A DNA stretch of 64,000 nt from Escherichia coli (GCF_003790525.1 NZ_CP033635.1), one strand, 5' to 3'; counted from the stretch's first letter, positions 43,296 to 60,657 are shown. A program made the numbers and translations. Notes: generated by a model from the sequence alone, not told the origin.

Positions 43296-43344
43296 GATAA
43301 AATCCTCACAGAAAATCGTTGAATGATAGTTTAACTTTGACAGG

Positions 43345-43989: not shown

Positions 43990-44003
43990 CAGAATGCCCT
44001 GAC

Positions 44004-44225
44004 TCAGTTCAGGGTGACGCTCATCAGCCGGACATACGGGCCAAAACTGTCCTTACGACGTTCTGCAAACACAGCCAGCACACCGGGAATATCCTGCACT
44101 TCACGACCGGTATACGTTTCAGTGCTGCCGTGCCAGCGGTATTTGCCGGTACAGAACGGAAAAAGACGGGATGCAGGATGCTGTTGGTGAATACGCATGG
44201 CTTCACCACGGGTGATGATTTTCAT
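44004..44225 (-). CDS. yeeT: DUF987 protein (YeeT/YpjJ family)
   Basis: 73 aa (MKIITRGEAMRIHQQHPASRLFPFCTGKYRWHGS...) typical of YeeT-like island proteins. Confidence 0.75.
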   Translation of the reverse strand: MKIITRGEAMRIHQQHPASRLFPFCTGKYRWHGSTETYTGREVQDIPGVLAVFAERRKDSFGPYVRLMSVTLN

Positions 44226-44287
44226 AATGGGATACCTCTGAAGACAGAAGATAAAAGTGAAAACAGGTGTGATGTGGTTGTGACGGG

Positions 44288-44764: not shown

Positions 44765-44779
44765 TGTTCCGGCCCCCTT

Positions 44780-45259
44780 TCAGTCAATGATGCGCATAAT
44801 GGCGCTGCATTCCGGATGCTGCAGGGCGTAATCCCGCAGACGGTAATAATGAACCGTCATGGCATAACACTCCGTACGGCAGGCGTGATGACTGTACGTC
44901 ATCAGACAGGCAGCAATGCCGGCGGCTTCCGGGCTCATTTCAGCGCGGTTACCGTTCATGGCATTGAACAGTACCCATGTTTCGTCATCATCATCATCCG
45001 GTTCGGGGGCCATAAATGCCCCGCCGTTGTTCAGGGTGTACAGATTCCAGATACCACCGCAGTAGTCTTCGCACAGACGGTCCATCCAGCCGAAGACACG
45101 GGGCTCCAGGGTCACCCACTGTGGAATGAGGCCAAAATGCTGCGGCCAGAAGCTGATGCGCTGTTCATCAGGGACGAGGCTGGCAACCAACTGAGGCGGA
45201 TTATTCTCTGGTGTTGTAGCTGAATAAATTGTGGGGGTATTCTGAGAAACGGTTTTCAT
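44780..45259 (-). CDS. antirestriction-like protein (YfjX/KlcA/ArdB-type, from memory)
   Basis: 159-aa acidic protein with motifs GGIWNLYTLNNGGAFMAP and YSHHAC seen in CP4-type island antirestriction proteins. Confidence 0.6.
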   Translation of the reverse strand: MKTVSQNTPTIYSATTPENNPPQLVASLVPDEQRISFWPQHFGLIPQWVTLEPRVFGWMDRLCEDYCGGIWNLYTLNNGGAFMAPEPDDDDDETWVLFNAMNGNRAEMSPEAAGIAACLMTYSHHACRTECYAMTVHYYRLRDYALQHPECSAIMRIID

Positions 45260-45340
45260 GAGATAACACCTTAAATAACAAATAAATGTGTGTTTTTCAG
45301 GAACGAAAGCTGAATGATTCCCTCACTCAGGGAAACGGCA

Positions 45341-46159
45341 TCAGCGCATGCTCTCCAGCAGCGTTTCTGCCATCACCCACAATGCGCGGTTGAGTTTTAT
45401 ATCGGTATCAATGCTGTGAATGGCCCGGGTATGGATACGTTTTCCTTTTGCACTGCGACCGGAAATCCCGCCTTTCAGCATATTCTCCTGGATGGTCTGA
45501 TAAGCACTCCACAGGTCCTTACCGTAATCCTCCCGGCGTCGTGGTGTCAGAATGTCGGCGGTGGTGACGGGCTGATGTTCGTCACCATAACGGTAAGTCA
45601 GTGCCGCCTGTGCCAGCGCCTGGCGTGCCGGTGGCGGCAGGACCAGCGACTGCATGGCATCACGCTTCTCCTCTATCCGGTCAAACACGCCCACCACCTC
45701 GTAAGCCCCTTCAATGACTCTGTCCACCACATTTCCCCGGTGCGGAACACGCACTTCCCCCAGAGACTGACCGCAGACGCATCCGTTCTGGCAGACGAAC
45801 CTGAAGTAACCCGGCAGCATCTGGTAGCTGGAGGTACCGTCATGGGAGTTCAGCAGGATGATTTCAGGGACATGTTGTCCGTTTATCTCCCCGTCACGGC
45901 GCAGACGCAGCATGTGTTTGGTATACCCCCGGCGGCCCGGGTCACGTACGCGGGTCTGGCAGGCGAAGAAGGGCTGAAAGCCTTCCCGCTGCAGGCTTTC
46001 CAGCACGGTGATGGTGGGGATGTATGTATAGTTCCGGCTCCGGGAGGTGTGTTTATCTTCCCCGAAAATCCCGGGCACATGGTGCATCAGCTCTTCACGG
46101 GTCAGCGGACGGTCACGGCGTATCTGGTTCGCATAACCAAAACGACTGGCTAATCGCAT
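45341..46159 (-). CDS. DUF932-family protein (YafZ/YfjQ-like)
   Basis: 272-aa ORF co-directional with the island operon; family from memory. Confidence 0.6.
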   Translation of the reverse strand: MRLASRFGYANQIRRDRPLTREELMHHVPGIFGEDKHTSRSRNYTYIPTITVLESLQREGFQPFFACQTRVRDPGRRGYTKHMLRLRRDGEINGQHVPEIILLNSHDGTSSYQMLPGYFRFVCQNGCVCGQSLGEVRVPHRGNVVDRVIEGAYEVVGVFDRIEEKRDAMQSLVLPPPARQALAQAALTYRYGDEHQPVTTADILTPRRREDYGKDLWSAYQTIQENMLKGGISGRSAKGKRIHTRAIHSIDTDIKLNRALWVMAETLLESMR

Positions 46160-46202
46160 ACTTTGCTCCTTATCAGTGGTTAAGACTGAATGACGTAATC
46201 AA

Positions 46203-46239
46203 TGAAAAAGCCGCGTCTCACGGAGAAGACGCGGCCTGA
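46203..46239 (-). terminator. Rho-independent terminator downstream of the GTPase gene
   Basis: gccgcgtct/agacgcggc hairpin followed by a T-run on the minus strand. Confidence 0.6.
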
Positions 46240-46344
46240 TGGATGAAATGAATGAGGGTTTACCGAAGCCCTTCAGCATTGTGGTGACGCAACCGGAAAT
46301 GCGTTTCCTGGTTATCGCCGGGGCCGGTCAAAAAGCGGGGACAT

Positions 46345-47229
46345 TCAGAACAGGCGATCCCACAGTGTGATCAGCAGGCGGATAATGCGATCACGGGCTT
46401 TGCGCAGAAGCTGCAGCATCCAGGCCGGAAAGCTGAACCGGGCAATGGCAGCGTCAAAACTCTGGCCGATGGCGTCACCAAAAGCCTGCTGTGCGTGTTG
46501 CTGATCCTGCGCAGTGCGCTTTTCATTCCGGATATGCGAATAAACCGCGCTGGTTGCCTGTGGTGGCAGGGCGTGGATCATCAGAGACACAAATGCCGGA
46601 AGATTCCAGCCGGCAGGAGCGGCTATGGGGAGTACCGGAAATGATGAAGGGAACAGGGTTGCCACCCGGGCTGTCACCGTCGCCAGTGAGAGTTCCTGCT
46701 GACGGGATGGCGTGCTGCTCTGGTTGTTCCATTCTTCAGCCGGGTGGATGCGATCGGCATGGCTGAGAACAAACAGAAAACGCGAGGGATCGGCACCTTC
46801 ATTCAGTAAAAACTGATGCATGGCGATGTCGGCAGCATACGCACGTTCATCAGCCCGCAGGATCCAGATAATCAGATCCAGTTCGGGCAGTAACTGACTG
46901 TAAAGTGCCCGGTATTCCTGATCATGCTGTGGTGTTTCGCCAGTGCCGGGCAGATCGACCAGCGTCATTCTTCGTTCACCGGGCTGAAAGGTAAGACGAT
47001 GAGCCTGACGGGTGCAGCCGTTCAGCGGATGCGTGGCGCAGACACGGGACTGAAAAATGGCATTGCACAGGCTGCTTTTTCCGGCACCGGATTTACCCAT
47101 AATGCCAATAACGGGTTCGTACTGAATGACGCTGCGAAGATGTTCAAGGATTTTCTGGCGAATTTCTTCAGGAAGAAAGGTCAGATGTGACTTTACGTGT
47201 GCGGAGAGGGAAGAATGGCTGAATGACAT
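46345..47229 (-). CDS. YeeP/YkfA/YfjP-family GTPase
   Basis: 294 aa with P-loop GIMGKSGAGKSS and DLPG switch motif; first gene of the minus-strand CP4-like operon. Confidence 0.8.
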   Translation of the reverse strand: MSFSHSSLSAHVKSHLTFLPEEIRQKILEHLRSVIQYEPVIGIMGKSGAGKSSLCNAIFQSRVCATHPLNGCTRQAHRLTFQPGERRMTLVDLPGTGETPQHDQEYRALYSQLLPELDLIIWILRADERAYAADIAMHQFLLNEGADPSRFLFVLSHADRIHPAEEWNNQSSTPSRQQELSLATVTARVATLFPSSFPVLPIAAPAGWNLPAFVSLMIHALPPQATSAVYSHIRNEKRTAQDQQHAQQAFGDAIGQSFDAAIARFSFPAWMLQLLRKARDRIIRLLITLWDRLF

Positions 47230-47329
47230 ACCGTTATCCTGTTGATTTCACTGAACCGGATCACATTAATCCGGCCTCTCAGTCAGGTAATATGGACGTG
47301 AAAATTTTTCCATTGACGGGAAGAAGAGT

Positions 47330-48553
47330 ATGGCTAAAAACAAAGGTATCTGTCGGAATAAAAAATGCAGCAATCCTGTTTCAGAATTTGATGAGGCAAA
47401 TGCCCTGAGGTTATGTGATGATCATTATCAGTTATGGAAACGAAATAAAGAGAACCGTCGGGTCAGGAATATTTGTCGTATAATCAGTAAATATGACAAA
47501 AGTCTGGACCGGGAGATATTTGACAGAGTAATAGATGCTGCAAGAAATCAAACGGGAAAGAGAATTGTTGAGGACGCAAAAATATTACATCAATTGCGCA
47601 ATTCAAAGCAAGTAAGAAAAAGTCTTCATAATGGAGTACTCCGGTCACGGGAATGGCTCAATACACAGGAGTTACTGAGAAGAAAAAATATATCTGTTAC
47701 AGGTGACTCATTTAAATCTTACATAAAGGATATTGTCAGATTATATTGCTATAAGTTTCTCTACAGCAGAGAATATCTTAATGAAAACGCATACAAAAAA
47801 CAATATCAGAGAGTTATTAACCCCAGAGAATTTAATGTTCCGATACTTCAACTTGAAGTTGCATGGATCAATAATAATTGCCGTTCAAGTGATTCAAGCT
47901 CTGATATTATCATCCTTCCCAGGATGATAAGAAGAATGGTTGTATTTAATGATACGAAGATAAATAAACAATTAGAGGAAATGTTGGGGGGGATAGCACG
48001 AAAAAAAGTCGCAGTAAGGAATAAAGGCGGTCTCTATACCAGAATAAAAAAAGAAAATGATTTTCGTTCTATGGATAGATTTATGGTGGAAATCGAAAAT
48101 ATCATAAGGCCTGAAATATTTCCGACATCAATTTACCCGCCTTTTTCACTTTCATTTATCGAGAGAGAATTGCCACTACTGAATCTGGCGCACTCACAGT
48201 ACAAAAGAGCAATAAGTAAAAAAGTGGCGAATTCAATTTTTTATACTTTGCGAAAAACTCACGTGGCATTATGGCTGCATCTTGAAATGTTTGCTCTTGT
48301 GGCATTCATCAAACTGTATACAGGAAAAGGGTTTGAATTCATGAAAAACATGTGTGTATTTATAGATTATGATAAAGGGATAATAAAATCCACGCATGAA
48401 GAACTGCTGAGTGAAATTAAGTGTAACATTCAGTTGAATTTAAAGGTGAATCCTGATAATTTTCCTGAATTAATAGAAGTATACAATTCATGCTTTAGTA
48501 AAAATATATTGTTGTATGATGTTCAGGATGATGGTTTTAAATGGTGTTTATGA
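47330..48553 (+). CDS. orphan AT-rich hypothetical protein (407 aa), Lys/Arg-rich, N-terminal C-x4-C...C-x2-H motif
   Basis: single long ORF in a visibly AT-rich tract, divergent from the GTPase gene; no recognised family. Confidence 0.6.
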   Translation: MAKNKGICRNKKCSNPVSEFDEANALRLCDDHYQLWKRNKENRRVRNICRIISKYDKSLDREIFDRVIDAARNQTGKRIVEDAKILHQLRNSKQVRKSLHNGVLRSREWLNTQELLRRKNISVTGDSFKSYIKDIVRLYCYKFLYSREYLNENAYKKQYQRVINPREFNVPILQLEVAWINNNCRSSDSSSDIIILPRMIRRMVVFNDTKINKQLEEMLGGIARKKVAVRNKGGLYTRIKKENDFRSMDRFMVEIENIIRPEIFPTSIYPPFSLSFIERELPLLNLAHSQYKRAISKKVANSIFYTLRKTHVALWLHLEMFALVAFIKLYTGKGFEFMKNMCVFIDYDKGIIKSTHEELLSEIKCNIQLNLKVNPDNFPELIEVYNSCFSKNILLYDVQDDGFKWCL

Positions 48554-50092
48554 TGTGAAAATATTAAATTTATATTACATTTTAATTATCGACAAAAAAC
48601 ACATAAAGAAATCTAAAGGGAATGAGCGTCAAATGAGCTGATATAGCGCCAGTTTGGTATGGTCATGTGATTTGATGATTAAAGCTTACGAATAATAACA
48701 CTCCTCTGTGAGCCATATAAATGAGCATGCCATAATCGTCAGTTCAGAGATAAAACTGACTGAATGATCTTATGTTATAGTAAGCAGTGTTTACCGGATA
48801 CGATGACTTATCTCTCTCACATCATATGGATTCACTTTCATGGGGTAAAGCGATGGGACTACAGACGCTGATTATGATGGTTTGCTGTAAAGTTAGCACA
48901 AGTTTTTGCTGTACAGAATACGGAGTAAGAAAAATAATTCCAGAGTAAATCTGCTCTGCTTTTGAACAGAAAAGATTCATGCTTACCGTGAAAAACTGAA
49001 ACCAACATTCAGTCTGCATGGATGTCTTAAGATGTTGAGAATGTCGGATATGGTATTATATACACCTTTTCCATTAGGTCCTTTTATGTTTTCATTAAGT
49101 CGTTTTGTATGTATTCCTCCAGTGATTCATTAGTGCCTGTTTACGCATTTACACACTTTCCCATTAATCTCCTTTAAATGTGTTTCATTACGCATTGCTG
49201 TACACATTTTTGAACTGATACACATCCAAGTTAGTAAACCTGTCAGTTCTGATTTTACGTTAACTAAATCAGTTTAATGCTGCTGTAAAACAATCCTTCC
49301 TGTTTAAGCAATCAATCTGCTATTCGATTTTACTGATGTGACGTTTAACCTTTCCTGAGCTTTGGTTGTTTGTGGTTTTTGGTTTGTGTTTCGACGTTAA
49401 GCTGAGAAAAGTATCTTTACGCTAAATCAACCCGAACTTTCCTGAGGTGATCTGACGTTCTTTTCGATGTGCTTACGACGATTCTGTTAAACGACTTTCT
49501 GGATGTTTTGATAACAATCAGATTGAGGCATTAACGATTCCTGACGTTTTGCTTTTTCATGTAAGGTCATTGTTTTCGTCATGATGTGGTTTTTCTTCTT
49601 GCATTGCGAAAGTGTGATGATTGGTTTTGGTTTTTTGATTCAGATGAGATTTACGTTATCGATGGTTAATCGTTTTTATGGTGCGTAGTGAAACGTAACA
49701 TTTTCGGGATGAGAAAATCGATTCTGATGGTGATGGGGATGATCGTGTTACGGCGTTATCTGTAAACAGGTTTTAAACGTGTCATTCGCATTCGTGATTG
49801 AGTTGTGTGATTAAGCTGTAGGTTTTGGCGTTGTTGTTGATTTGCATTGCCAGGAAGCGTTCTGGTTGCGTTTCTGGTGTTTTGTTCGAATGTTCTGTGG
49901 ATCCTTTTCCCTTCAGGCTTTTCTCGTCGTCCATGTCGTTTTTAAATCCATTCATGCTGTTGTTGCGTGTTTTGCTGCTGTGTGCAGGATTATCTTTTCG
50001 TTCCGGGATGGTTTGTTCCGTTTCAATCACTCTTAATCAGAGAGTTGTAGCATTGCTTAATGGCATGATGCCGTAAAGTTTTACCGCGGTGA

Positions 50093-50128
50093 TTAATGAT
50101 GTGAAGTCAATCCAAATCAACGGAGATC
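50093..50128 (+). promoter_or_regulatory. conserved leader motif upstream of yagK-like gene 1
   Basis: ttaatgatgtgaagtcaatccaaatcaacggagatc includes GGAG 8 nt before ATG 50136; repeated at 51034-51065. Confidence 0.4.
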
Positions 50129-50135
50129 TCTCATC

Positions 50136-50867
50136 ATGAATCAACCAATACACAATGCTTACTGGTTATCCCGTTTTGACAGCCTTCTCGACAGTGCCCT
50201 GTCGCAGCACCGTGCCGTCTCGTTAATCCGGGTGGATTTACGTTTCCCTGAGTATATGCCTGTCACCATCATGGATCCCGATCCGGATTCAGCGGTGATT
50301 TCTCGTTTTTTCGAATCCCTGAAAGCCAAAATCCAGGCTTACCAGCGGAAAAAACGACGTGCCAACAAGCGTGTGCGTGCAACCACTCTGCGTTATTTCT
50401 GGTGTCGGGAGTTTGGCAAGGAAAAAGGCAGGAAACATTATCACGTGATATTGCTGCTCAACAAAGATACCTGGTGCTCGCCAGGGGATTTCAGCGAACC
50501 ATCTTCGCTGGCGACGATGATCCTGGAGGCATGGTGCAGCGCCCTGCATCTTGAGGCCTGGCAAGGCGATGGCCTGGTCCATTTTTCCAGGTGGACGCCT
50601 TCCCGTAAACCAGCATCGTCTGATGCTCGCCCTTCTTCCGATGACACGCCTTTGTCGGGTGGATGTTCTGATACCAGGAAGGCTTCAGAAAAAAAGCCGG
50701 GTGAAGCCGCTGTTCTCTGGATCAAGCGTGGTGATGTGGAAGCGCTGCAGAAAGCCCGGAACAGAGCCAGTTATCTCGTGAAATATGAGACGAAGCAGCA
50801 TGACGGTTCCGGGCAACGTAATTATGGTTGCAGTCGTGGGCCGGGGCGTCTGCTGGATGGCAGGTGA
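50136..50867 (+). CDS. YagK/YfjJ-family (inovirus Gp2-like) island protein
   Basis: 243-aa ORF with family-typical basic stretch and VDLRFP-like block; family from memory. Confidence 0.65.
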   Translation: MNQPIHNAYWLSRFDSLLDSALSQHRAVSLIRVDLRFPEYMPVTIMDPDPDSAVISRFFESLKAKIQAYQRKKRRANKRVRATTLRYFWCREFGKEKGRKHYHVILLLNKDTWCSPGDFSEPSSLATMILEAWCSALHLEAWQGDGLVHFSRWTPSRKPASSDARPSSDDTPLSGGCSDTRKASEKKPGEAAVLWIKRGDVEALQKARNRASYLVKYETKQHDGSGQRNYGCSRGPGRLLDGR

Positions 50868-51033
50868 GCCCTGTAAAACGACATCCGGTGCCTGAGCTTA
50901 TGCTACAGGACGTTGGCTGACGCCCTTAGCTCGTTTTCTGAAAAAGTCGTCCTGAAGTCATGCAACGGTATTTTTCTCTGCTTTCGCTCCTGGAAACACT
51001 CCGTCGGTAAAACCTTACTGTCCTGCTTAATGA

Positions 51034-51065
51034 TGTGAACCGAAGTCAACGGAGATCATTCATTC
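51034..51065 (+). promoter_or_regulatory. second copy of the conserved leader motif
   Basis: cttaatgatgtgaaccgaagtcaacggagatc; the equivalent start position reads CTG followed by an early stop. Confidence 0.4.
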
Positions 51066-51211
51066 TGAACCTGCATCCGGTGTTCTTTCCCTTATCTTCC
51101 CGTTCTGCTTCGGTTCTTCACTTATTCCATCAATCTCATTCGTAAACCATAACACGTCAGCTCATTCACGGGCAGGACGCGTTGTGGGCTGCGCATAACG
51201 GAGCATATCTT

Positions 51212-51784
51212 ATGAATGCTATCCCTTATTTCGACTATAGCCTGGCCCCCTTCTGGCCATCTTATCAGAGCAAAGTTATCGGTGTCCTTGAGCGTGCGCT
51301 GCGTGAGCAGTCCGGCTCCAGGATACGGCGGATCCTGCTTCGTCTGCCGTGTGAATATGACAGTACCTTCAGCAGCAGAAAGACCTGGTTTGGTATGGAT
51401 TTTATCGAAACCGTCAGTGCGCTGATGAATGCAACCCCCGGACGCGACCTCTGCTGGCTCCTGACACGTCATCCTGAAAAACCGGAATACCACGTGGTGC
51501 TGTGCGTCAGACAGGAATATTTCGACGGCCCTGAGCTGGACCGGTTGATTCTGGATGCCTGGAGCAACGTACTGGGCTTCGCGGCACCGGGTGAAGCAGC
51601 ACCGTACCAGAAACAGATAACCCGGGATGTGGTGCTGGACAGTTGTTCACCGGACTGCGAAGAGAGACTCAAAGAGCTGATCTGGGCGTTCAGTGATTTC
51701 GCCCGCGATCGTCGTGGTGTGCGCGATCCGGAAGCCCGTTACCTCGCCGGTAATCCCTGGTATCCCGTAGCAGGCCAGCTCTGA
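51212..51784 (+). CDS. YagK/YfjJ-family paralog, N-terminally degenerate (possible pseudogene)
   Basis: ORF 51182-51784 shares family features (ILLRLPCEYD, HYHVVL); ancestral start region is disrupted. Confidence 0.5.
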   Translation: MNAIPYFDYSLAPFWPSYQSKVIGVLERALREQSGSRIRRILLRLPCEYDSTFSSRKTWFGMDFIETVSALMNATPGRDLCWLLTRHPEKPEYHVVLCVRQEYFDGPELDRLILDAWSNVLGFAAPGEAAPYQKQITRDVVLDSCSPDCEERLKELIWAFSDFARDRRGVRDPEARYLAGNPWYPVAGQL

Positions 51785-51852
51785 AAGCTCAGCTCAGCAG
51801 ATTCTCCCGCATTTGCCCAACATTCATAAATCTCACAGAGGACATTCTGACC

Positions 51853-52089
51853 ATGTTGACCTCAATGACAGGTCACGACAGCGTATTGCTGCGTGCCGAC
51901 GATCCCCTGATCGACATGAACTACATCACCAGCTTCACTGGTATGACCGACAAATGGTTTTACAAGCTGATCAGTGAAGGCCATTTCCCTAAACCCATCA
52001 AACTGGGGCGCAGCAGCCGCTGGTACAAAAGTGAAGTGGAGCAGTGGATGCAGCAACGAATCGAGGCATCACGAGGGGCAGCAGCATGA
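51853..52089 (+). CDS. alpA: AlpA-family phage/island transcriptional regulator
   Basis: small HTH protein with FPKPIKLGRSSRWYKSEVEQWM motif; alternative start ATG 51916. Confidence 0.7.
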   Translation: MLTSMTGHDSVLLRADDPLIDMNYITSFTGMTDKWFYKLISEGHFPKPIKLGRSSRWYKSEVEQWMQQRIEASRGAAA

Positions 52090-52289
52090 AACGTGTTGTA
52101 ATGCCGGTACGCTGGCAATGTGCAAAATACCAGCGTTGGTATTGTGGAAATCAGCCCTGTCCCTGGTGCTGGCGACCTGCTGCCCCCGTCTGTCATTCCT
52201 CGTTCTTCGCTGTAACAGGCATCGTACCGGTCTCGGCGTGCTTTCCTGCGTACCGACACCGGTTCAGCAACATTCAAGGGGATCAAATC

Positions 52290-52838
52290 GTGCAAATAAC
52301 CGAAACCGTACTTTCAGAGCCGGTGGAAATCCGGCGTTTTATTCAGCAGGCGGTGGATCACTGGCCGCGTCTGCTGGCCGTCCACTTCACACTCCATTCG
52401 GCAGAAGGAAACATCAACGGACAACAGATTCATGCATTCTGTACTTCCTTTTACCGACAGGTGCACGAGCGTATTACTGAACGTAATCACACGGCCAGTC
52501 CAGCACCACCGGTGGTATTACGCTGGTTGCGGGAACAACATGGAGGAGCAACAATGCGATGCCTGTTGCTGCTCAGCCAGACGAGCATTTGCCATCCACG
52601 GGTCAGTGCCACGGTTGATGAAGAATGTTCGCAACGGGTGGATTTATTGCAACAGACATGGCGGGTGATAAGTGCTGACGGACAATGCCGGGTGGAAAGG
52701 TGTTTTCAGGCTGCCCGGGGTGATACATCCGGCCAGTATATTGCGTTAAAAACAGTTGCATTGTCTCTGGGGTTACCGGTTGTGACCGGTATTACCCATC
52801 GCCCGGTACAGCGCTGTACATTGATTACAGCTCAGTGA
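52290..52838 (+). CDS. hypothetical island protein (possible third YagK/YfjJ-like paralog)
   Basis: ORF 52044-52838; plausible GTG start at 52290 after AAGGGGA; the Cys-rich segment upstream looks non-coding. Confidence 0.4.
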   Translation: MQITETVLSEPVEIRRFIQQAVDHWPRLLAVHFTLHSAEGNINGQQIHAFCTSFYRQVHERITERNHTASPAPPVVLRWLREQHGGATMRCLLLLSQTSICHPRVSATVDEECSQRVDLLQQTWRVISADGQCRVERCFQAARGDTSGQYIALKTVALSLGLPVVTGITHRPVQRCTLITAQ

Positions 52839-52855
52839 ACAGCGCTGTTGTGCAG

Positions 52856-53200
52856 TCAACGAGGTTTTCTGTCTTTTCGTCGGTCATTCAGCATCATTAA
52901 ACGGGTCTCTGCCTCTTTCTGTTCCTGTGGTGTCACTTCCCCGCACGGCTGACCGTTCAGGTTGTAACGGGCGCCACCTGCTATTAACGCACGGTAATAG
53001 CGCGGAGACTGCACATAAGACGCCACTGCTGCATGTAATGTACCAGCGCCAAACGCCAGTTCTCGGATGGCGATATCCTGTATCAGGTCGTCAGGTATCC
53101 CCACTTTAAGTGGTTTTGTTTTTTCCCGGTTGAATGACTCAGGCCAGAGTTCCACAAGACGAATAATGCGCTTACGGTTTTTGCTCTGGCGTTTTGTCAT
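52856..53200 (-). CDS. ProQ/FinO-domain RNA chaperone-like protein
   Basis: 114 aa resembling the ProQ N-terminal FinO domain (KPLKVGI.DDL, SPRYYRAL, NLNGQPCGEVT). Confidence 0.7.
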   Translation of the reverse strand: MTKRQSKNRKRIIRLVELWPESFNREKTKPLKVGIPDDLIQDIAIRELAFGAGTLHAAVASYVQSPRYYRALIAGGARYNLNGQPCGEVTPQEQKEAETRLMMLNDRRKDRKPR

Positions 53201-53838
53201 GTCGCCACGGTGTTTTATCAGCAGGTTTCTGTTTATCGTTCAACTGTGGTATCTGGTCACCGGCCTTCATTTTGTATGCTGTGTCCGTTTTATCCTGCAG
53301 CGGCGTTGCCGGTGATTTACTGAAAATACCCTGCGGTTTACGGTTAATGGTCAGCGTTACCATCAGTATTGTTACCTCGTGCTGTCAATGGAAGTGGTAC
53401 CTCATCCGGTATCTGAAAATGTTTTCCGGTGGATGGCACAGCGAATGTCATGTAAGACATGCTGTTGCCGGTATTGTTCAGTACTGTGAGTTGTGAGCGT
53501 ATTCGTTATCAGACAGAGGGGCAGGGAACAAACGTCAGAGGTTAAGGATATCCGGGAACAAATGGCGTAAACGGACATCTCAGTGCCTGAGAAACAGTAC
53601 AGGTCAGGCCATCATGGCCTGCAAACAGAGCCCTGGCGACCCCGTGGCCGAAAACGAAACAATAACCCGCGCGCAGTGCGAGGAATCCGGATGTGAAGCA
53701 ATCAGCAGGTAATATTAATGGCAGGACCAGCAGGTTCTTTAAACAAACGAACATGCTGTAATTGATATTTTGCTTATTGTATTTTCTTTTTAGTTATTAA
53801 ATTAATTTATTTACGAAAAATTTTCTGCAGATACAGGA

Positions 53839-53867
53839 TGGGAATTCAGGGTGTCATCACGCCTTAT
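53839..53867. other. perfect palindrome gggtgtcatca-N7-tgatgacaccc downstream of the LacI-family gene
   Basis: 11-bp inverted repeat; terminator or operator candidate. Confidence 0.3.
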
Positions 53868-53958
53868 GATGACACCCTTCCCCTGGTTGTGGAAAACCGA
53901 AGGATATATCAGGTTCAGCAACAAAATCAGTGAGCTGAAAGATACCAGTCCCCCAGCT

Positions 53959-54978
53959 TCAGCAGCTTTCACGTAAACATAAACAGGGCTCAATGAATAT
54001 CTGATTGCTCCAGTTACCTTCTTTAATTCGTTCCAGCAAAACATTTCCTGCTTCCAGACCAATTTTCCTGTGAGGAACGGCCATTGTTGTTAATGATGGT
54101 TGGCAAACTTTGCTGACGTCACTGTCACCAAATCCTACTACGGCGAGCTCGTCTGGAACTTTGATCCGTCTTCGTTGACATTCATAGAGAACACCGCAGG
54201 CTAACTCATCTGACACACATACCAGGGCATCCAGTTCCGGCCATGCGAGCAAAAATTCCGGTAGTTGTGATGCTCCGGTGGAAAAAACAGGTGGCAGAGC
54301 AGCGTTAATAACACGGTTGGGAGACATATGATGGCGTAACATAGCTTTATACCATCCCTGTAAATGCTGCTGAAAGATCCACTGTTCCTGGTTAGCGCAT
54401 AGCAAACCGATATTCTGATAACCACGTTGTACCAGCATATCCGTCAGCTCGAACATTGCTGCAACATTATCAATACCAATGTTGATATCTATCGGATCAG
54501 TACGAATGGCACCGATTTCTATAACAGGAATCGAGGCATTTTTGAGCAAGTGACGCACGGTACTATTATGATCAACACTAAGCAAAATTGCTGCAGCGAT
54601 ATTAGAAGCCAGCAGGGTTTCCAGCAGTTTTTCTTCTTGTTCCAGACGATGGCGTGACTCAGCCAGGATTATTTGATACCCCGCTGGTTGTAGCACATGT
54701 TGCAGCCCGGCAAACATTTCCGTGCATCCCGCTTCAGCCAGGTTTGGCACGACCATTGCGATCGTGTGTGAAGATGCCGATGCCAGTGCGCTTGCAGTGA
54801 GGTTGGGCATATACCCTAATTCATTAACTGCGGCTTCAATCTTCTCCCTCAATTTATCTGAAACTTGTTCGGGAGTGCGTAACGCTCTGGATACAGTCAT
54901 TGTGCCAACTCCCGCGAGTTGCGCGACATCAGCAATAGTGACTTTACCTGTACTACGACGTTTTCGGGTTATTGCCAT
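53959..54978 (-). CDS. LacI/GalR-family transcriptional regulator
   Basis: 339 aa with N-terminal HTH (TIADVAQLAGVGTMTVSRAL) and periplasmic-binding-fold core; divergent from the PTS operon. Confidence 0.8.
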   Translation of the reverse strand: MAITRKRRSTGKVTIADVAQLAGVGTMTVSRALRTPEQVSDKLREKIEAAVNELGYMPNLTASALASASSHTIAMVVPNLAEAGCTEMFAGLQHVLQPAGYQIILAESRHRLEQEEKLLETLLASNIAAAILLSVDHNSTVRHLLKNASIPVIEIGAIRTDPIDINIGIDNVAAMFELTDMLVQRGYQNIGLLCANQEQWIFQQHLQGWYKAMLRHHMSPNRVINAALPPVFSTGASQLPEFLLAWPELDALVCVSDELACGVLYECQRRRIKVPDELAVVGFGDSDVSKVCQPSLTTMAVPHRKIGLEAGNVLLERIKEGNWSNQIFIEPCLCLRESC

Positions 54979-55229
54979 ACAAAATCCTGCTCAGCGACTA
55001 CATATGGAGATCTTTTATTACTTATCATCAACGGCTTCCTGCACTGCCAGTAGCAGAGTATACCTCTTAATATCTGCCATAAGTCTGGATTTAATCAGTG
55101 AAATCTATTTTGATAGCGCTATCACAAATTCGAACAATACCTCCTGATAGCGCTATCTTTGTGATATTGATCGCAGATATACCGTCGTTACTTGAATACA
55201 TTCTGGTCATATAAATAAGAAATTAGGGG

Positions 55230-55679
55230 GTGGGAGTGCTTAATATCTGGCTTTCTGATTCAACAATCGCATTACGAAAGAATGCCGCAACCTGGCAGCA
55301 GGCATTAGATATCTGTGCCAGACCGTTACTGGATGCAGAGATAATTACGACGGATTATCTCAGTGCGATAAAGACACAACATGAAAAACTGGGGCCTTAT
55401 TATGTCCTGGCACCCGGGCTGGCCATGCCGCATGCCCGACCAGAAGAAGGGGCAAAAGGATTAGGTTTATCATTATTAAAACTTGAAGAAGGTGTCAGTT
55501 TTCATACAGAGGAATTTGATCCTGTAGATGTTATCATTTTACTTGCCGCACCAGACAAACACAGTCATATCGAAATGATATCTGCACTGGCTGAGTTATT
55601 CTCCAGCGAAAAAGATTTACATGAATTGCATCAGGCTCGCAATGTGGAGGAAATAAAAAAGATAATTTCACGGTTCTGA
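55230..55679 (+). CDS. PTS EIIA component, ascorbate (UlaC/SgaA) type
   Basis: 149 aa with APGLAMPHARPEEG active-site region resembling UlaC. Confidence 0.8.
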   Translation: MGVLNIWLSDSTIALRKNAATWQQALDICARPLLDAEIITTDYLSAIKTQHEKLGPYYVLAPGLAMPHARPEEGAKGLGLSLLKLEEGVSFHTEEFDPVDVIILLAAPDKHSHIEMISALAELFSSEKDLHELHQARNVEEIKKIISRF

Positions 55680-55757
55680 TTACATTATAAATTCAGTCTT
55701 TTCACAACATTGCGCCGTTGCGTGATGGGACTTCTTCAACTTAAAATGGTGAATATA

Positions 55758-56030
55758 ATGAAAATTATGGCTATTTGTGGCTCAGGGCTTGGTAGTAGTT
55801 TTATGGTCGAAATGAATATTAAAAAAGTTCTGAAAAAAATGGATATAGAGGCGGAAGTGGAACATTCCGATCTCTCATCAGCAACGCCAGGGGCTGCCGA
55901 TTTATTTGTGATGGCCAAAGATATTGCTGCCAGTGCCAGCGTACCGGAAAGTCAGTTGGTGGTTATCAACAACATCATTGATATTAATGAACTCGAAACG
56001 CAACTGCGTAACTGGTTAGCAAAACAATAA
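55758..56030 (+). CDS. PTS EIIB component, ascorbate (UlaB) type
   Basis: 90 aa from MKIMAICGSGLGSSFM...; Cys-containing phosphorylation loop. Confidence 0.8.
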   Translation: MKIMAICGSGLGSSFMVEMNIKKVLKKMDIEAEVEHSDLSSATPGAADLFVMAKDIAASASVPESQLVVINNIIDINELETQLRNWLAKQ

Positions 56031-56052
56031 CCTTAATTGAAGCGAGGTGGAT

Positions 56053-57441
56053 ATGTTTATCCTTGAAACGCTGAATTTTGTTGTTGATATACTTAAAGTG
56101 CCCGCGATACTGGTCGGCTTGATTGCCTTAATTGGTCTGGTTGCCCAGAAAAAATCTTTTTCAGATGTTGTTAAAGGTACAATTAAAACTATTCTCGGCT
56201 TTATTGTACTGGGCGGTGGTGCCACTGTTTTGGTTGGTTCGTTAAATCCTCTTGGGAGTATGTTTGAACATGCCTTTAATATTCAGGGCATCATTCCGAA
56301 TAATGAGGCTATTGTTTCTATTGCGCTGGAAAAATATGGCGCATCGACGGCCCTTATTATGGCATTTGGTATGGTGGCGAATATTATTGTTGCCCGCTTT
56401 ACCCGCCTTAAATATATCTTCCTGACCGGACACCACACATTTTACATGGCCTGCATGATTGGTGTGATTCTGACAGTGGCTGGTTTTGAAGGTATATCAC
56501 TGGTCTTTACCGGTTCTCTTATTCTGGGACTTGTGATGGCATTTTTCCCGGCATTAGCACAACGCTATATGAAGCGTATTACGGGGAATGATGACATTGC
56601 TTTTGGTCACTTTGGCACTCTGGGATATGTACTTTCTGGCTGGATTGGCAGCGTGTGCGGTAAAGGTTCCCGCTCCACCGAAGAGATGAATTTGCCCAAA
56701 AATCTGAGCTTCCTGCGCGACAGTTCCATCTCTATTTCTCTTACGATGATGGTGATTTATCTGATCATGGCGATCAGTGCTGGTCGTGAGTTCGTTGAAA
56801 GCCAGTTCAGTGGTGGTCAAAACTACCTTGTCTACGCCATCATAATGGCCATCACCTTCGCTGCTGGTGTATTTATTATTCTGCAAGGCGTGCGTTTAAT
56901 CCTTGCTGAAATAGTTCCGGCATTTACCGGGTTTTCAGAAAAGCTGGTGCCGAATGCCCGTCCGGCCCTCGATTGCCCGGTTGTGTATCCGTATGCGCCA
57001 AACGCAGTGTTAGTTGGTTTCTTGTTTAGCTTTTTTGGCGGTCTGGTAGGGCTATTTTTGTTGGGACAGATGAAACTGGTGTTGATTCTTCCGGGTGTCG
57101 TTCCTCACTTTTTTACCGGGGCGGCTGCTGGCGTATTTGGTAACGCTACGGGGGGACGTCGTGGCGCAATGATTGGTGCTTTTGCGAATGGCTTATTGAT
57201 TACCTTCCTGCCAGTACTGTTATTGCCGGTTCTTGGGGCGATAGGCTTTGCTAATACGACCTTTTCCGATGCAGATTTTGGTGCTGTCGGCATCGTCCTC
57301 GGAAACCTGGCACGTTATCTCTCACCTTTTGCCATCACCGGACTTGTAGTAGCGCTATTTGTGCTGCTGGTTGCCTGGAACATTTTCGCCAGTAACAAAA
57401 TCGCTGCCAAAGCGCAGAAGAAGAGCGGAGCCAAATCATGA
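56053..57441 (+). CDS. PTS EIIC permease, ascorbate (UlaA/SgaT) family
   Basis: 463-aa polytopic membrane protein; ATG 56053 after GAGGTGG. Confidence 0.85.
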   Translation: MFILETLNFVVDILKVPAILVGLIALIGLVAQKKSFSDVVKGTIKTILGFIVLGGGATVLVGSLNPLGSMFEHAFNIQGIIPNNEAIVSIALEKYGASTALIMAFGMVANIIVARFTRLKYIFLTGHHTFYMACMIGVILTVAGFEGISLVFTGSLILGLVMAFFPALAQRYMKRITGNDDIAFGHFGTLGYVLSGWIGSVCGKGSRSTEEMNLPKNLSFLRDSSISISLTMMVIYLIMAISAGREFVESQFSGGQNYLVYAIIMAITFAAGVFIILQGVRLILAEIVPAFTGFSEKLVPNARPALDCPVVYPYAPNAVLVGFLFSFFGGLVGLFLLGQMKLVLILPGVVPHFFTGAAAGVFGNATGGRRGAMIGAFANGLLITFLPVLLLPVLGAIGFANTTFSDADFGAVGIVLGNLARYLSPFAITGLVVALFVLLVAWNIFASNKIAAKAQKKSGAKS

Positions 57442-58268
57442 ATGTTAAAGAATTGACTCAATTTGCACGGGATATACGTATCCAGACGCTTAAATCATTA
57501 ACTCATCTCGGCTTCGGTCATTATGGTGGCAGCATGTCGGTTGTGGAAACGCTGGCAGTGCTTTATGGCGCTGTAATGAAAATTGATCCTGCTGCTCCCG
57601 ACTGGCCTGAGCGTGACTATTTTATCCTGTCCAAAGGACATGCCGGACCTGCTCTCTACAGTACTCTGGCGCTGAAAGGCTACTTTCCACTGGAAGAATT
57701 AAGCACCTTAAATCAGAACGGAACCCGCTTACCAAGTCATCCGGATCGGCTAAAAACGTGTGGTGTTGATAGCACCACAGGATCGCTGGGGCAGGGGATA
57801 TCCATTGCCGGAGGGATGGCGCTGTCGCATAAACTGGCGGGGCGCAAGAATCGGGTTTTTTGTATTGTCGGCGATGGCGAACTTAATGAAGGCCAATGTT
57901 GGGAAGCTTTCCAGTTTATCGCGCATCATCGTTTGAATAACCTCACTGTGTTTGTGGACTGGAACAAACAGCAGCTTGATGGTCAACTGGATGAAATTAT
58001 TAATCCATTTGATTTGGAAGGAAAATTCCGGGCTTTCGGTTTTGATGTCGTGACAGTGAAGGGCGATGATATTGAGGGCTTGTTGAATGTAGTTAAACCT
58101 GTCCTGCCAGCTGAGGCCAGACCGAGAGTGGTCATTCTCGATAGCATTAAAGGGCAGGGGGTGCCGTGTCTCGAGCAACTCAGTAATTCTCATCACTTAC
58201 GCCTCACAGAAGAGATGAAGGGGACGCTAAACGAAACAATTCGCCAACTGGAGGATATGCATGATTAA
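57438..58268 (+). CDS. transketolase, N-terminal (ThDP-binding) subunit
   Basis: 276 aa with GDGE...NEGQ ThDP motif; start overlaps the EIIC stop. Confidence 0.85.
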   Translation: MNVKELTQFARDIRIQTLKSLTHLGFGHYGGSMSVVETLAVLYGAVMKIDPAAPDWPERDYFILSKGHAGPALYSTLALKGYFPLEELSTLNQNGTRLPSHPDRLKTCGVDSTTGSLGQGISIAGGMALSHKLAGRKNRVFCIVGDGELNEGQCWEAFQFIAHHRLNNLTVFVDWNKQQLDGQLDEIINPFDLEGKFRAFGFDVVTVKGDDIEGLLNVVKPVLPAEARPRVVILDSIKGQGVPCLEQLSNSHHLRLTEEMKGTLNETIRQLEDMHD

Positions 58269-59214
58269 TCTCGCACCGGCAGGACAAAAAGACAGCATTG
58301 AAATGCGCAAAGTTTATGCAGATTTTATCGCGCAACAGAGTAAAAACGTCAGTTCTGTCATTGCTCTTGAGGCTGATTTAATGAGTTCCATGGCAATGGA
58401 CAGCGTGGCGCAGGATTATCCAGATCACGTCATTAATTGCGGCATTATGGAAGCCAATGTTATCGGCACAGCTGCAGGGCTGGCCTTAACCGGGCGCAAG
58501 CCATTCGTGCATACCTTTACCGCATTTGCCAGTCGTCGCTGTTTTGATCAACTCTTTATGTCGCTTGATTACCAGGGCGCTAACGTCAAAGTTATAGCTT
58601 CTGATGCGGGTGTTGCTGCTTGCCACAATGGCGGAACACATATGTCATTTGAAGATATGGGAATTGTGCGCGGGCTGGCGCATTCGGTGGTGATGGAGAT
58701 GACAGATGCCGTAATGTTCAGCGATATCTTGCGTCAACTCGTTGCACTGGAAGGATTTTATTGGATTCGTACCATTCGGAAGCAAGCAGCGAGTATTTAC
58801 GCACCAGGTACAACCTTTACAATTGGCAAAGGGCAGGTATTACGTGAAGGTACGGATGTCACCTTAATTGCTAATGGCATTATGGTGGTGGAAGCCCTGG
58901 AGGCCGCACGTCAACTTGAGCTGGCTGGGGTAAGTGTAGCGGTGATTGATATGTTTACGCTCAAACCCGTTGATCGGATGTTAATTAAAAATTATGCCGA
59001 AAAAACAGGACGGATCGTAACATGTGAAAACCATAGTATTCATAATGGATTAGGTTCAGCAGTTGCTGAAGTGCTTGTAGAAACTTGTCCTGTGCCCATG
59101 CGTCGGGTGGGGGTTAAAGAGCGGTATGGCCAGGTTGGAACTCAGGACTTTTTACAGAGAGAGTACGGGTTAACCGCGCAAGATATTGTGGCGGCAGCCA
59201 GAGAGCTATTGTAA
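58261..59214 (+). CDS. transketolase, C-terminal (pyrimidine-binding) subunit
   Basis: 317 aa; overlaps and is co-transcribed with the N-terminal subunit gene. Confidence 0.85.
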   Translation: MINLAPAGQKDSIEMRKVYADFIAQQSKNVSSVIALEADLMSSMAMDSVAQDYPDHVINCGIMEANVIGTAAGLALTGRKPFVHTFTAFASRRCFDQLFMSLDYQGANVKVIASDAGVAACHNGGTHMSFEDMGIVRGLAHSVVMEMTDAVMFSDILRQLVALEGFYWIRTIRKQAASIYAPGTTFTIGKGQVLREGTDVTLIANGIMVVEALEAARQLELAGVSVAVIDMFTLKPVDRMLIKNYAEKTGRIVTCENHSIHNGLGSAVAEVLVETCPVPMRRVGVKERYGQVGTQDFLQREYGLTAQDIVAAARELL

Positions 59215-59304
59215 TTCATGGAGTTTGTTTACCATTCTGTTTTTCTTAAAAGTGAGTGTCTGTGCGGTCACTAAACTCGGTAATAAAGCAGTTCATTGCA
59301 GGAT

Positions 59305-60657
59305 AAGAAGCGTTTGGTTGGAGCCTGTTTAGGATTCTGTGTAAATGCCTTTTCTCAGAAGTGACCGTCCAGGCGGTCACCGAACTCGATAATAAAGCGG
59401 CTCATTGCCATTCGCCAGTCCTTCAACGGCATCGTCCATTTCTGGGACGCAGACTGGATTGCCAGCCACACCACTTTTTTCACCGAGTCGTCTGTCGGGA
59501 ACACTTTACGCTTTTTGATCGCATGGCGGATCACGCTGTTTAGCGACTCGATGGCATTCGTCGTATAGATCACTTTGCGGATGTCCGTTGGATAAGCGAA
59601 GAACGTGGCAAGATTCGGCCAGTTAGCCTGCCAGCTTCGGCTTATCTGAGGATAGCGACTGTCCCAGGCCGCAGCGAACGCTTCCAGTGCCTGCTGACCT
59701 GCCTCTTCCGTGGGAGCCTGATAAATCGCTTTCAGGTCGCGAGTGACGGCTTTGTAGTCCTTCCATGACACGAAGCGCAGGCTGTTGCGCACCATATGCA
59801 CGATGCATAACTGGATGCGGGCCTTCGGATATACTGTGTTGATGGCATCCGGGAAGCCTTTCAGGCCATCCACACAGGCGATGAGGATATCGTTCAGACC
59901 GCGGTTTTTCAGTTCAGTCAGCACATTGAGCCAGAACTTCGCCCCTTCATTTTCGGCCAGCCACATACCCAGCAGTTCTTTCTGACCTTCGATATTGATG
60001 CCCAGTGCCAGGAACACCGATTTGTTGATGACGCGACTGTCCTGCCGAACTTTCAGGACGATACAGTCAAGATAAACAATGGGGTAAACAGCATCCAGTG
60101 GTCTGTTTTGCCATTCTACAACCTGCTCCATCACGGCATCGGTGACCTTTGATATCAGTGCCGGTGAAACATCTGCGTCATACAGTTCTTTGAACGCAGT
60201 AGCTATCTCACGGGTGGTCATCCCTTTGGCATACAACGAGAGGATCTGGTTATCCATCCCGGTAATACGGGTCTGATTTTTCTTTACCAGTTGTGGTTCG
60301 AAGGTACCGTCACGATCGCGCGGAGTACGCAGTTCCAGTGGACCGTCGCCTGTGATAACGGTCTTTGTGTAATAACCGTTGCGGGAGTTAGCTCCTGGTC
60401 TGGACTGATTTTTCTCATACCCAAGATGGTGTGTCATCTCTGCATTGAGAGCGGCTTCAACGCTGAGCTTTTTCAGCAGCCGATCAAACTGACTGAGGTC
60501 TTCAGGGGTTTTGAGGTTTTTGGCCAGTTCGTTAGCCAGAGCCTGTAACTGTTTTTCGTCCATAAATTAACCTTCATTTGATGCTGGATTGAACATATCA
60601 AAATCAGGCAATTACACAAATCTATGTACAGGCTCTTTGGTTGTGTCGTTTTACCGT
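59305..60657 (-). mobile_element. IS256-family insertion sequence
   Basis: transposase gene flanked by imperfect inverted ends (...ttggttggagcctgt... at 59310-59350 against ...acaggctctttggttgtg... at 60620-60650); about 1.35 kb. Confidence 0.6.
59355..60563 (-). CDS. IS256-family (mutator-type) transposase
   Basis: 402-aa ORF with IS256-family hallmarks including C-terminal motifs (YTTNAIESLN). Confidence 0.85.
   Translation of the reverse strand: MDEKQLQALANELAKNLKTPEDLSQFDRLLKKLSVEAALNAEMTHHLGYEKNQSRPGANSRNGYYTKTVITGDGPLELRTPRDRDGTFEPQLVKKNQTRITGMDNQILSLYAKGMTTREIATAFKELYDADVSPALISKVTDAVMEQVVEWQNRPLDAVYPIVYLDCIVLKVRQDSRVINKSVFLALGINIEGQKELLGMWLAENEGAKFWLNVLTELKNRGLNDILIACVDGLKGFPDAINTVYPKARIQLCIVHMVRNSLRFVSWKDYKAVTRDLKAIYQAPTEEAGQQALEAFAAAWDSRYPQISRSWQANWPNLATFFAYPTDIRKVIYTTNAIESLNSVIRHAIKKRKVFPTDDSVKKVVWLAIQSASQKWTMPLKDWRMAMSRFIIEFGDRLDGHF

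Follow-up and report, generated by a model that had tools for sequence, protein, structure and literature searches.

Loci in which a phosphotransferase system (PTS) is joined to a transketolase have been described in pathogenic Escherichia coli and in the pneumococcus. The tkt1 island (Li et al., 2012) is an accessory island of extraintestinal pathogenic and avian pathogenic E. coli (ExPEC and APEC) that carries, like the island discussed here, a transketolase-like gene and a PTS component; a single 1,998-bp tkt1 gene lies there beside a glucose-type IIBC, a sugar isomerase and a carbamate kinase in a set of 15 open reading frames (ORFs) (PMC3349570). The locus vpe in E. coli (Martinez-Jehanne et al., 2012), as papers citing it describe it, is made up of four ORFs by the deoK operon on an island with a CdiA homologue, and has been linked to urovirulence and gut colonization. 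Pneumococcal ula2 (SP_2127-2131 / SPD_1957-1961) codes for EIIB and EIIC proteins of the L-ascorbate (L-Asc) family followed by a split transketolase, tktN/tktC, on one transcript and with a dedicated regulator; ketopentoses have been proposed as its substrates, a proposal that was never validated. The split transketolase of Carboxydothermus hydrogenoformans was found to be active only once reconstituted as an alpha2beta2 complex, and split-gene transketolases were said to be restricted to archaea and some thermophiles, full-length enzymes being all that mesophiles like E. coli have (PMC7661550). Salmonella is described, in citing papers, as having three transketolases, TktA, TktB and TktC, and its triple tkt mutant as avirulent. 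Here we report on a six-gene cassette at positions 53959-59214 of a 64,000-nucleotide stretch of E. coli DNA (GCF_003790525.1, NZ_CP033635.1; the whole stretch is referred to as the window), in which a LacI/GalR-family regulator, a PTS of the L-Asc family and a split transketolase are encoded side by side.

The cassette is a real and intact operon of six genes for sugar uptake and transketolase, and comparison of its genes and their surroundings indicates that it is orthologous to an ancient chromosomal locus of the Enterobacterales, found beside pta-ackA in most enterobacteria. We give a probability of about 75% to the reading that it is, as a whole, a self-contained inducible catabolic operon in which the PTS feeds the transketolase, carried by E. 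coli as a relocated copy of that native locus. The proper comparators are the Salmonella cassette as orthologue, vpe as paralogue and pneumococcal ula2 as analogue.

Organization and Conservation of the Cassette

An earlier reading of the window, made from its sequence and called here the original prediction, had proposed a divergently transcribed regulator, three PTS proteins and a two-subunit transketolase in this position. An ORF scan of the window recovered the six genes at the predicted coordinates, and Pfam and NCBIfam placed all six products in the predicted families, so that gene content, coordinates and divergent layout can be taken as established (Table 1). RefSeq annotation of identical DNA contains the same genes and starts the ones encoding EIIA, EIIB and EIIC at 55236, 55758 and 56053, the starts of the longest ORFs (55230, 55710 and 56047) lying slightly upstream. 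The gene for the N-terminal transketolase subunit (TktN) overlaps the EIIC stop by 4 nt and the gene for the C-terminal subunit (TktC) overlaps the TktN gene by 8 nt, and the transketolase is therefore translationally coupled to the permease. No stop codon was found inside any of the six genes. When compared with E. whittamii, all six show ratios of nonsynonymous to synonymous substitution (dN/dS) of 0.06-0.15, with 0.10 for the regulator, and are therefore under purifying selection.

Table 1. Features of the cassette and its immediate surroundings (positions in the window).
Feature	Position	Strand	Evidence and remarks
Terminator-like hairpin, predicted	53933-53958	-	Consensus scan: 10-bp stem then T-run; directly 3' of regulator gene
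LacI/GalR-family regulator, 339 aa	53959-54978	-	Pfam LacI helix-turn-helix, residues 14-59, and Peripla_BP_1/3; divergent from operon
Putative operator O1, perfect palindrome TGATAGCGCTATCA	55111-55124		Motif scan; probable regulator site
Putative operator O2 TGATAGCGCTATCT	55145-55158		Motif scan; 34 bp downstream of O1
CRP-like site TGTGATATTGATCGCA	55160-55175		Motif; abuts O2 directly
Predicted -10 element TACATT	55197-55202	+	TAnAnT positions invariant in four genera
PTS EIIA, 147 aa, PTS_EIIA_2	55236-55679	+	Pfam; candidate phospho-His66 in LAMPH
PTS EIIB, 90 aa, PTS_IIB	55758-56030	+	Pfam; candidate phospho-Cys7
PTS EIIC, L-ascorbate (SgaT/UlaA) family, 462 aa	56053-57441	+	Pfam EIIC-GAT; NF009549
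Transketolase N-terminal (PP-domain) subunit TktN, 276 aa	57438-58268	+	Pfam Transketolase_N
Transketolase C-terminal (Pyr+TKC) subunit TktC, 317 aa	58261-59214	+	Pfam Transket_pyr and Transketolase_C
IS256-family transposase ORF, 402 aa	59355-60563	-	3' of operon, island context; family from annotation of best-matching genome ('IS256-like element IS1414 family transposase')

The regulator combines an N-terminal LacI DNA-binding domain with an effector domain like that of periplasmic binding proteins (PF00356, PF00532 and PF13377), and its top NCBIfam matches are of the GntR, IdnR and CytR types, each under its cutoff. EIIC matches PF03611 (EIIC-GAT) with 510 bits over residues 14-410, and NF009549, the model named 'PTS ascorbate transporter subunit IIC', with 989.5 bits against a cutoff of 890. 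The candidate phosphorylated residues of EIIA and EIIB align with the LAMPH His of UlaC and with Cys9 of UlaB, respectively. From these features EIIA, EIIB and EIIC appear to constitute a complete Enzyme II of the L-Asc family (Transporter Classification, TC, 4.A.7). It should be noted that the substrate is not fixed by the name of the family, the identity to the K-12 proteins by BLASTP being only 29% for EIIC and UlaA, with 27% for EIIB and UlaB and 40% for EIIA and UlaC.

A scan with one genome per species returned 159 relatives, and the best 80 were examined. These 80 loci span more than 25 genera, and the carriers include Escherichia whittamii, E. albertii, a cryptic Escherichia clade, Enterobacter, the Klebsiella oxytoca group, Raoultella, Citrobacter, Salmonella arizonae, Kosakonia, Cedecea, Pluralibacter, Trabulsiella, Mangrovibacter, Pantoea coffeiphila, Mixta, Serratia, Rahnella and Hafnia. 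The six genes stand in constant order at every examined locus with enough sequence, the context yfcD(nudix)-cassette-(yfcC)-pta-ackA is found in nearly all of them (L025-L104), and no extra catabolic gene lies inside the block at any of the 80. The relatives of EIIC are 92% identical in Salmonella enterica and 83-89% identical in Serratia, Rahnella, Gibbsiella and others. Next to pta-ackA, Salmonella, Serratia and Rahnella have these six genes in unchanged order and orientation. Identity to the Salmonella proteins is 87.6% for the regulator, 72.8% for EIIA, 94.4% for EIIB, 92.4% for EIIC, 88.8% for TktN and 86.1% for TktC, and the Salmonella locus agrees with the cassette further in its operators, its CRP site and the unusual transketolase loop described below. 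From its position, we take this Salmonella cassette to be the tktC locus (STM2340-2345 / STM14_2885-2886).

Among plasmids the only full-length matches were three Salmonella PLSDB records of about 500 kb with the whole cassette at 76.8% nucleotide identity (CP148755.1, CP148763.1 and NZ_CP148876.1); given their size and their 'single cell' source these are probably mis-binned chromosome. On Pantoea megaplasmids the relatives comprise just a PTS with a GntR-type regulator, and they offer no clue to the substrate.

Relation to Described Loci

Identity with the core ulaABC or tktA/tktB genes had been set beforehand as the test of the original prediction. The cassette is neither. Core ula is ruled out by the 27-40% identity to UlaABC, by different neighbours and regulator, and by an occurrence limited to 132 of the 5,426 complete genomes of E. 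coli; core tktA/tktB is ruled out by an identity of about 25% to TktA and by the same restricted distribution. The K-12 UlaABC and TktA/TktB proteins are nevertheless of the same families, and the phospho-accepting His and Cys as well as the thiamine diphosphate (ThDP)-binding and catalytic residues are conserved in both. While K-12 ula has the gene order C-B-A together with ulaG, ulaD, ulaE, ulaF and the DeoR-type regulator UlaR, the cassette has the order A-B-C, none of these additional genes and a LacI-type regulator, and the transketolase that is fused in TktA is split here.

The one comparison in the original prediction that failed is with the tkt1 island, which had been named as comparable. 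From the published gene table this is a non-homologous locus with a single, full-length transketolase gene whose product is 68% identical to Vibrio TktA, at another chromosomal site and in another gene set (PMC3349570), and it is ruled out. Locus c3405-3410 of CFT073, which we considered as a possible PTS/transketolase locus, is ruled out by its maltose/glucose-type PTS; a nanE/PTS/MurR block related to it is present at another place of the same islands.

With a more sensitive DNA search, a diverged EIIC gene (about 67% nucleotide identity) was identified in some 1,300 more genomes, Nissle 1917 and ST131 strains among them. In Nissle 1917, where vpe was located by the descriptions in citing papers, the locus (positions 6898-10215 of L011) reads cdiA, then a LacI regulator, EIIA, EIIB, EIIC (418 aa), a transposase and four genes of the deoK operon, with no transketolase. 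The divergent LacI-type regulator and the EIIA-EIIB-EIIC layout of the L-Asc family are the same as in the cassette, and protein identity is 43% for the regulator, 43.5% for EIIA, 42% for EIIB and 63% for EIIC. The cassette is thus not vpe, from which it is set apart by 43-63% protein identity, by the transketolase, by the position of vpe beside deoK and by a presence in 2.4% of genomes as against about 24%; vpe is a paralogue that lacks the transketolase. Pneumococcal ula2 is likened to the cassette from published descriptions, as an analogue; it has an activator of the PTS regulation domain (PRD)/EIIA type and no separate EIIA, where the cassette has a LacI-type regulator and an EIIA.

Distribution and Probable History in E. 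coli

The complete block is present in 132 of the 5,426 complete E. coli genomes (about 2.4%), always in the chromosome, which bears out the accessory status that had been predicted, with an identity of at least 99.9% among the 132 island copies. A query consisting of the native E. whittamii region with both junctions matched the flanks in all 5,426 genomes and found the cassette at the native site in none of them; in K-12 the gap between yfcC and yfcD is 32 bp and holds no trace of the cassette (positions 7602-7635 of L105). By this distribution the cassette is ancestral to the Enterobacterales, has been lost from E. coli and has been regained by a minority of strains on an island, and its position on the island instead of at the native site is a matter of relocation and not of non-orthology.

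The nearest relatives of the island copy are found in E. whittamii, E. albertii and the cryptic Escherichia clade, with protein identities of 93-98% (96% for the regulator of E. whittamii), and all three have the cassette at the native yfcD / yfcC-pta-ackA site and not on an island. At the nucleotide level, identity between the island copy and the cassette native to E. whittamii is 93.4%. This homology spans 53955-59215, its two ends lying just a few bases from the first and the last stop codon, and the predicted boundaries of 53959-59214 therefore coincide with an evolutionary unit. The GC content of all Escherichia cassettes is low, at 45.7-47.3%. As the core genes flanking the E. whittamii cassette are 94.1% and 90.1% identical to those of K-12, the whittamii-like identity of the island copy points to an unsampled whittamii-like lineage of Escherichia as the donor. 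Salmonella can be ruled out as direct donor, since its copy, which is at the ancestral yfcD / yfcC-pta-ackA site, is only 68-83% identical in nucleotide sequence and has a GC content of 52.6% as against 45.7% for the island copy in E. coli. The cryptic clade, which is the nearest to E. coli, was also rejected, because in its genome the flanks are 96.9% identical to K-12 and the cassette is only 84.5% identical to the island copy.

The island in the window begins just past setC (39154-40338). Judging from the gene order of K-12, this side of setC would be the selC side; the window contains no tRNA gene. IS256-family and IS3-family elements lie directly downstream of the cassette. PAI I5155 of APEC strain IMT5155 contains the same cassette, flanked on the left and on the right by the same neighbours, and the genome paper on that strain gives the cassette one sentence. 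In a sample of 60 of the 132 carriers, 34 genomes were of avian origin (poultry or other birds) and 16 of human origin, proportions that describe this sample.

The part of the island upstream of the cassette (40400-53900) has a CP4-like backbone with genes for DUF4942, a CbtA/YeeU toxin-antitoxin pair, antirestriction, DUF932 and GTPase proteins. Genes of the inovirus-Gp2, YagK/YfjJ-like and ProQ/FinO families are also present in this part, the ProQ/FinO gene being frameshifted in TUM9803. This same backbone flanks the cassette in PAI I5155, there with ireA and insertion sequence elements inserted.

In a further 239 genomes the match is only partial, and most of these keep just the last 265 bp of the query. 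The retained 265 bp (59036-59300 in the window; 7001-7265 of L012, strain XH992) consist of the last 177 bp of the TktC gene with downstream DNA, and this scar immediately follows an IS1 within the same backbone of the island, with one identical boundary. A single identical boundary indicates one IS1-mediated deletion event and not repeated losses. The deletion allele is commoner than the intact cassette with its 132 genomes.

Predicted Control of the Operon

The regulator and EIIA genes are separated by a divergent control region of 257 bp (54979-55235). A generic scan for promoters and terminators gave 13 sites where 10.9 are expected from shuffled sequence, and since this is no better than chance a phylogenetic footprint was relied on instead, for which 76 intergenic regions from other species were compared. 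Two operator palindromes were observed where chance would give 0.24 over the whole window; they have a central CG, as LacI/GalR-family operators do, and lie in the regulator's own control region. O1 is identical in 75 of the 76 regions and invariant in an alignment of four genera, O2 is present as TG(G/A)TAGCGCTATCT in 75 of the 76 species, and the spacing between the two is 34-35 bp. In 62 of the 76 species a CRP-like site (with at most one mismatch in its right half) is found 3' of O2, which in Serratia and Rahnella is the perfect TGTGA-N6-TCACA, and in most species a hexamer such as TAAAGT or TAGAGT follows at the same distance from the CRP site. Mean column identity in the four-genus alignment is 53% and the region is otherwise unalignable, the invariant columns falling nearly all within O1, O2, the CRP site, the -10 element and the ribosome-binding region of the regulator gene.

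From the position of the -10 element, transcription would start near 55209, about 7 nt past it. Given this predicted transcription start site (TSS), the CRP site would be centered at about -41.5, which is class II geometry, with O2 at about -57.5 and O1 at about -91.5. The LacI-family protein would repress the operon, and probably its own gene too, by binding to O1 and O2, possibly with looping between them; a repressor sitting on the DNA just upstream of CRP may interfere with CRP or with the C-terminal domain of the alpha subunit of RNA polymerase. As O2 abuts a class II CRP site, expression should need both the inducer and cyclic AMP (cAMP)-CRP. Repression, dependence on CRP, TSS and flux direction are all inferred.

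The control region of vpe in Nissle 1917 (L011, 7930-8199) contains the operator motif three times (TGATAGCGCTATCA, TGGTAGCGTTATCA and AGATAGCGCTATCA), followed by a CRP-like TGCGA-N6-TCACA. With this common operator motif the regulators of vpe and of the cassette may cross-talk, or form the same regulon, where both loci co-occur. No known RNA element was detected by an Rfam scan of 53000-60000, and the predicted terminator hairpin behind the regulator gene falls outside the block that is homologous to the native loci.

The Transketolase and Its Substrate Loop

Among solved structures the closest are both chains of the split transketolase from C. hydrogenoformans (N chain, 6YAK, E=3e-64; C chain, 6YAJ, E=1e-70), which has the same two-chain domain split as the cassette enzyme. 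It comes from a thermophile, carries the canonical loop THAG...GEDGASHQ and has no PTS linkage that we could see. Concatenated, TktN and TktC align with TktA at about 25% identity, and the residues kept (in TktA numbering) are H26, H66, H100, D155, G156, N185 and H261 in the N subunit and R358, S385, E411, F434, F437, H473 and R520 in the C subunit. By its domains the enzyme is therefore a putative two-chain split transketolase in which the ThDP-binding, Mg-binding and catalytic residues are conserved.

Residues 113-128 of TktC (58597-58644) form an atypical loop, ASDAGVAACHNGGTHM. The canonical T-H-x-G...G-E-D-G-x-S/T-H-Q is replaced here by S-D-A-G...C-H-N-G-G-T-H-M, with His461, Glu468 and Asp469 of TktA becoming Asp115, His122 and Asn123, changes which were confirmed by an independent HMMER alignment to 6YAJ and human TKT. 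This remodelled loop is kept in 79 of the 80 enterobacterial species, and two distant PTS-linked split transketolases (L023 and L106) are without it and retain the canonical His/Asp type (ATHAG...GEDGATHQ and ATHAG...GKDGGSHE). The canonical set of substrate-channel residues is thus only partly present, R358, S385 and R520 being retained and H461 and D469 replaced. In transketolases His461 helps to bind the phosphate of the substrate, and Asp469 sets stereo- and acceptor selectivity. According to one study, the acceptor preference of an S385Y/D469T/R520Q variant moves off phosphorylated aldehydes (PMC5073344). The remodelled loop suggests a preference for a non-canonical substrate, and it lowers the confidence in canonical specificity, not in fold or chemistry.

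Function, Substrate and Alternative Explanations

In the mechanism that we propose, His66 of EIIA would pass phosphate to Cys7 of EIIB, which would phosphorylate the sugar during its import by EIIC, and an alpha2beta2-type ThDP transketolase would channel the sugar phosphate so formed into the non-oxidative pentose phosphate pathway. This is the role that had been predicted, and it is supported, with flux presumably in that direction. As the block contains no extra catabolic genes, the transketolase should act on the product of the PTS either directly or after a single step by core enzymes.

Distant relatives of EIIC (44-49% identity) offer some guidance on the substrate. At L023/L024 and L106 the order is PRD-regulator, EIIB, EIIC and split transketolase. 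At L018 a PRD-regulator is followed by a GmhA-like isomerase, EIIB, EIIC, a canonical full-length transketolase and a second GmhA-like isomerase, and at L014/L015 a PRD-regulator, EIIB and EIIC are followed by a true transaldolase (TIGR02134, 403 bits, cutoff 282). The GmhA-like proteins of L018 score 156 and 95 bits on the gmhA model, under its cutoff of 209 bits, and are members of the family with no assurance of the same function. Several other distant neighbourhoods were uninformative because of short contigs or unrelated neighbours. Sedoheptulose-7-phosphate (S7P) is the sole metabolite common to transketolase, transaldolase and GmhA, so that a heptose or ketoheptose is attractive as a candidate; ketopentoses agree just as well with the transketolase and transaldolase partners. 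Our best guess is a ketose or heptose whose phosphate feeds transketolase or transaldolase directly, such as sedoheptulose giving S7P or a ketopentose giving xylulose-5-phosphate (Xu5P). It is tempting to go further and to see in the TktC-type enzyme, with shifted specificity and a dedicated L-Asc-family PTS, an undescribed one-enzyme route of Enterobacterales for a rare ketose or heptose, for example sedoheptulose or another heptose imported as its 7-phosphate. This follows from the pairing of the EIIC clade with transaldolase or GmhA-like phosphoheptose isomerases in the distant relatives; we regard it as tentative and, in this specific form, rather unlikely. A literature search for PTS-dependent catabolism of sedoheptulose or heptoses found nothing relevant.

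A number of points weigh against the interpretation as an inducible catabolic operon. None of the sampled gene contexts names a substrate. The TSS and the binding of CRP and repressor are predictions, and since the operators lie upstream of the promoter core and not over it, steric exclusion of RNA polymerase is not an obvious mode of repression. With non-canonical residues at two specificity positions, the physiological reaction of the transketolase may differ from the textbook one. The TktC of Salmonella is reportedly an active transketolase (Shaw et al., 2018), which bears on the cassette only if TktC is the enzyme encoded by the Salmonella orthologue. Finally, the loss of the native copy in all 5,426 genomes and the commoner IS1 scar indicate that the operon is dispensable in most niches of E. 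coli.

The alternative that survives best, although we think it improbable, is that the cassette is a second L-ascorbate system of the 'ula2' type, which would import ascorbate or an analogue like erythorbate for conversion by UlaG, UlaD, UlaE and UlaF to Xu5P, with the extra transketolase absorbing the surge. The EIIC passes the cutoff of the NCBIfam model for ascorbate transporters, a name which is an annotation rather than a tested function, and its identity to UlaA is just 29%. In the pneumococcus EIIB-EIIC-tktN-tktC is induced by ascorbate through UlaR2 and by no other tested sugar, and strains without the main ula PTS still grew on ascorbate; this induction is only 2-3-fold, however, as against 5-37-fold for the true ula operon. 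The regulator of the cassette is of the LacI and not of the DeoR (UlaR) type, and lactonase, decarboxylase and epimerase genes are absent beside the cassette in all 80 species.

Considerably less probable is the proposal that the cassette is a functionless passenger in E. coli, hitch-hiking on the island with ireA and YadA-like adhesins and heading for loss. It would account for the universal loss of the native copy and for the 177-bp transketolase end that is all that most of the 239 partial-match genomes retain behind IS1, and the near-identity of the 132 copies means that their spread is too recent for decay to be visible. Against this, every one of the six ORFs is intact, as are the two operators, the CRP site and each catalytic residue, and the single scar boundary stands for one event and not for independent repeated losses. 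The dN/dS ratios also speak against a passenger, although most of that signal accrued before the transfer.

The catabolic reading has further to be set against a non-catabolic role, in which the transketolase would be a stress-phase or back-up isozyme in the pentose phosphate pathway, with the PTS proteins mainly regulatory. A review places Salmonella tktB and tktC under RpoS-like regulation, and the avirulence of the triple tkt mutant would agree with such a role. The coupling to a complete Enzyme II, a dedicated sugar-type regulator and a CRP site is nonetheless the standard layout of a catabolic operon, and this PTS clade is repeatedly paired with a transketolase or transaldolase in different phyla. 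The Salmonella enzyme is said to have a low Vmax on canonical substrates, a point in favor of the isozyme; we hold this explanation to be as doubtful as the passenger one. That the cassette is a locus already described in ExPEC can be dismissed, as direct comparison with each of tkt1, c3405-3410 and vpe refutes it.

Implications

The module of an L-Asc-family PTS with a split transketolase is widespread, comprising the Salmonella cassette, pneumococcal ula2 and many examples in Firmicutes, and in the literature that we reached no substrate is established for the Salmonella cassette, ula2 or vpe. Handles for finding the inducer and the substrate are provided by the defined operators, by the CRP site and by three diagnostic substitutions in the active site. 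E. coli provides a natural experiment with three genotypes, namely the empty ancestral site, the intact island copy (132 genomes) and, in more genomes, the IS1-deleted island. The cassette also corrects the view that confines split-gene transketolases to archaea and thermophiles, which is contradicted by its relatives in more than 25 enterobacterial genera and by the enzymes of streptococci.

What is new here is the tktC-type orthology and vpe paralogy, the history of loss and re-acquisition, the operator-CRP layout, the occurrence of the operator motif in vpe, the remodelling of the active site, the commoner IS1 allele and the substrate hypotheses. In other respects this is an ordinary accessory sugar operon and not a new kind of system, belonging to a known ancient enterobacterial operon whose counterpart enzyme in Salmonella has reportedly been characterized already.

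Other Features of the Window

Two hypothetical genes of about 35% GC are found at 7100-9350 between ilvN and uhpA; both are annotated at this position in strain HS4 as well, and TUM9803 has none there. TUM9803 is also without the genes for a RelE/ParE-family toxin and a helix-turn-helix antitoxin that lie between yicN and nepI (18378-19038), as annotated in a genome of identical sequence in this part. By the annotation of an identical genome, the core-side segment 20659-36500 encodes a 2,933-aa inverse autotransporter adhesin, EaeX/Air (20659-29460), the HilA-family regulator gene eilA (29512-31209), and, at low GC, translocon and chaperone genes for type III secretion of the IpaD/SipD-like, YopB/SseC-like and SycD-like types.

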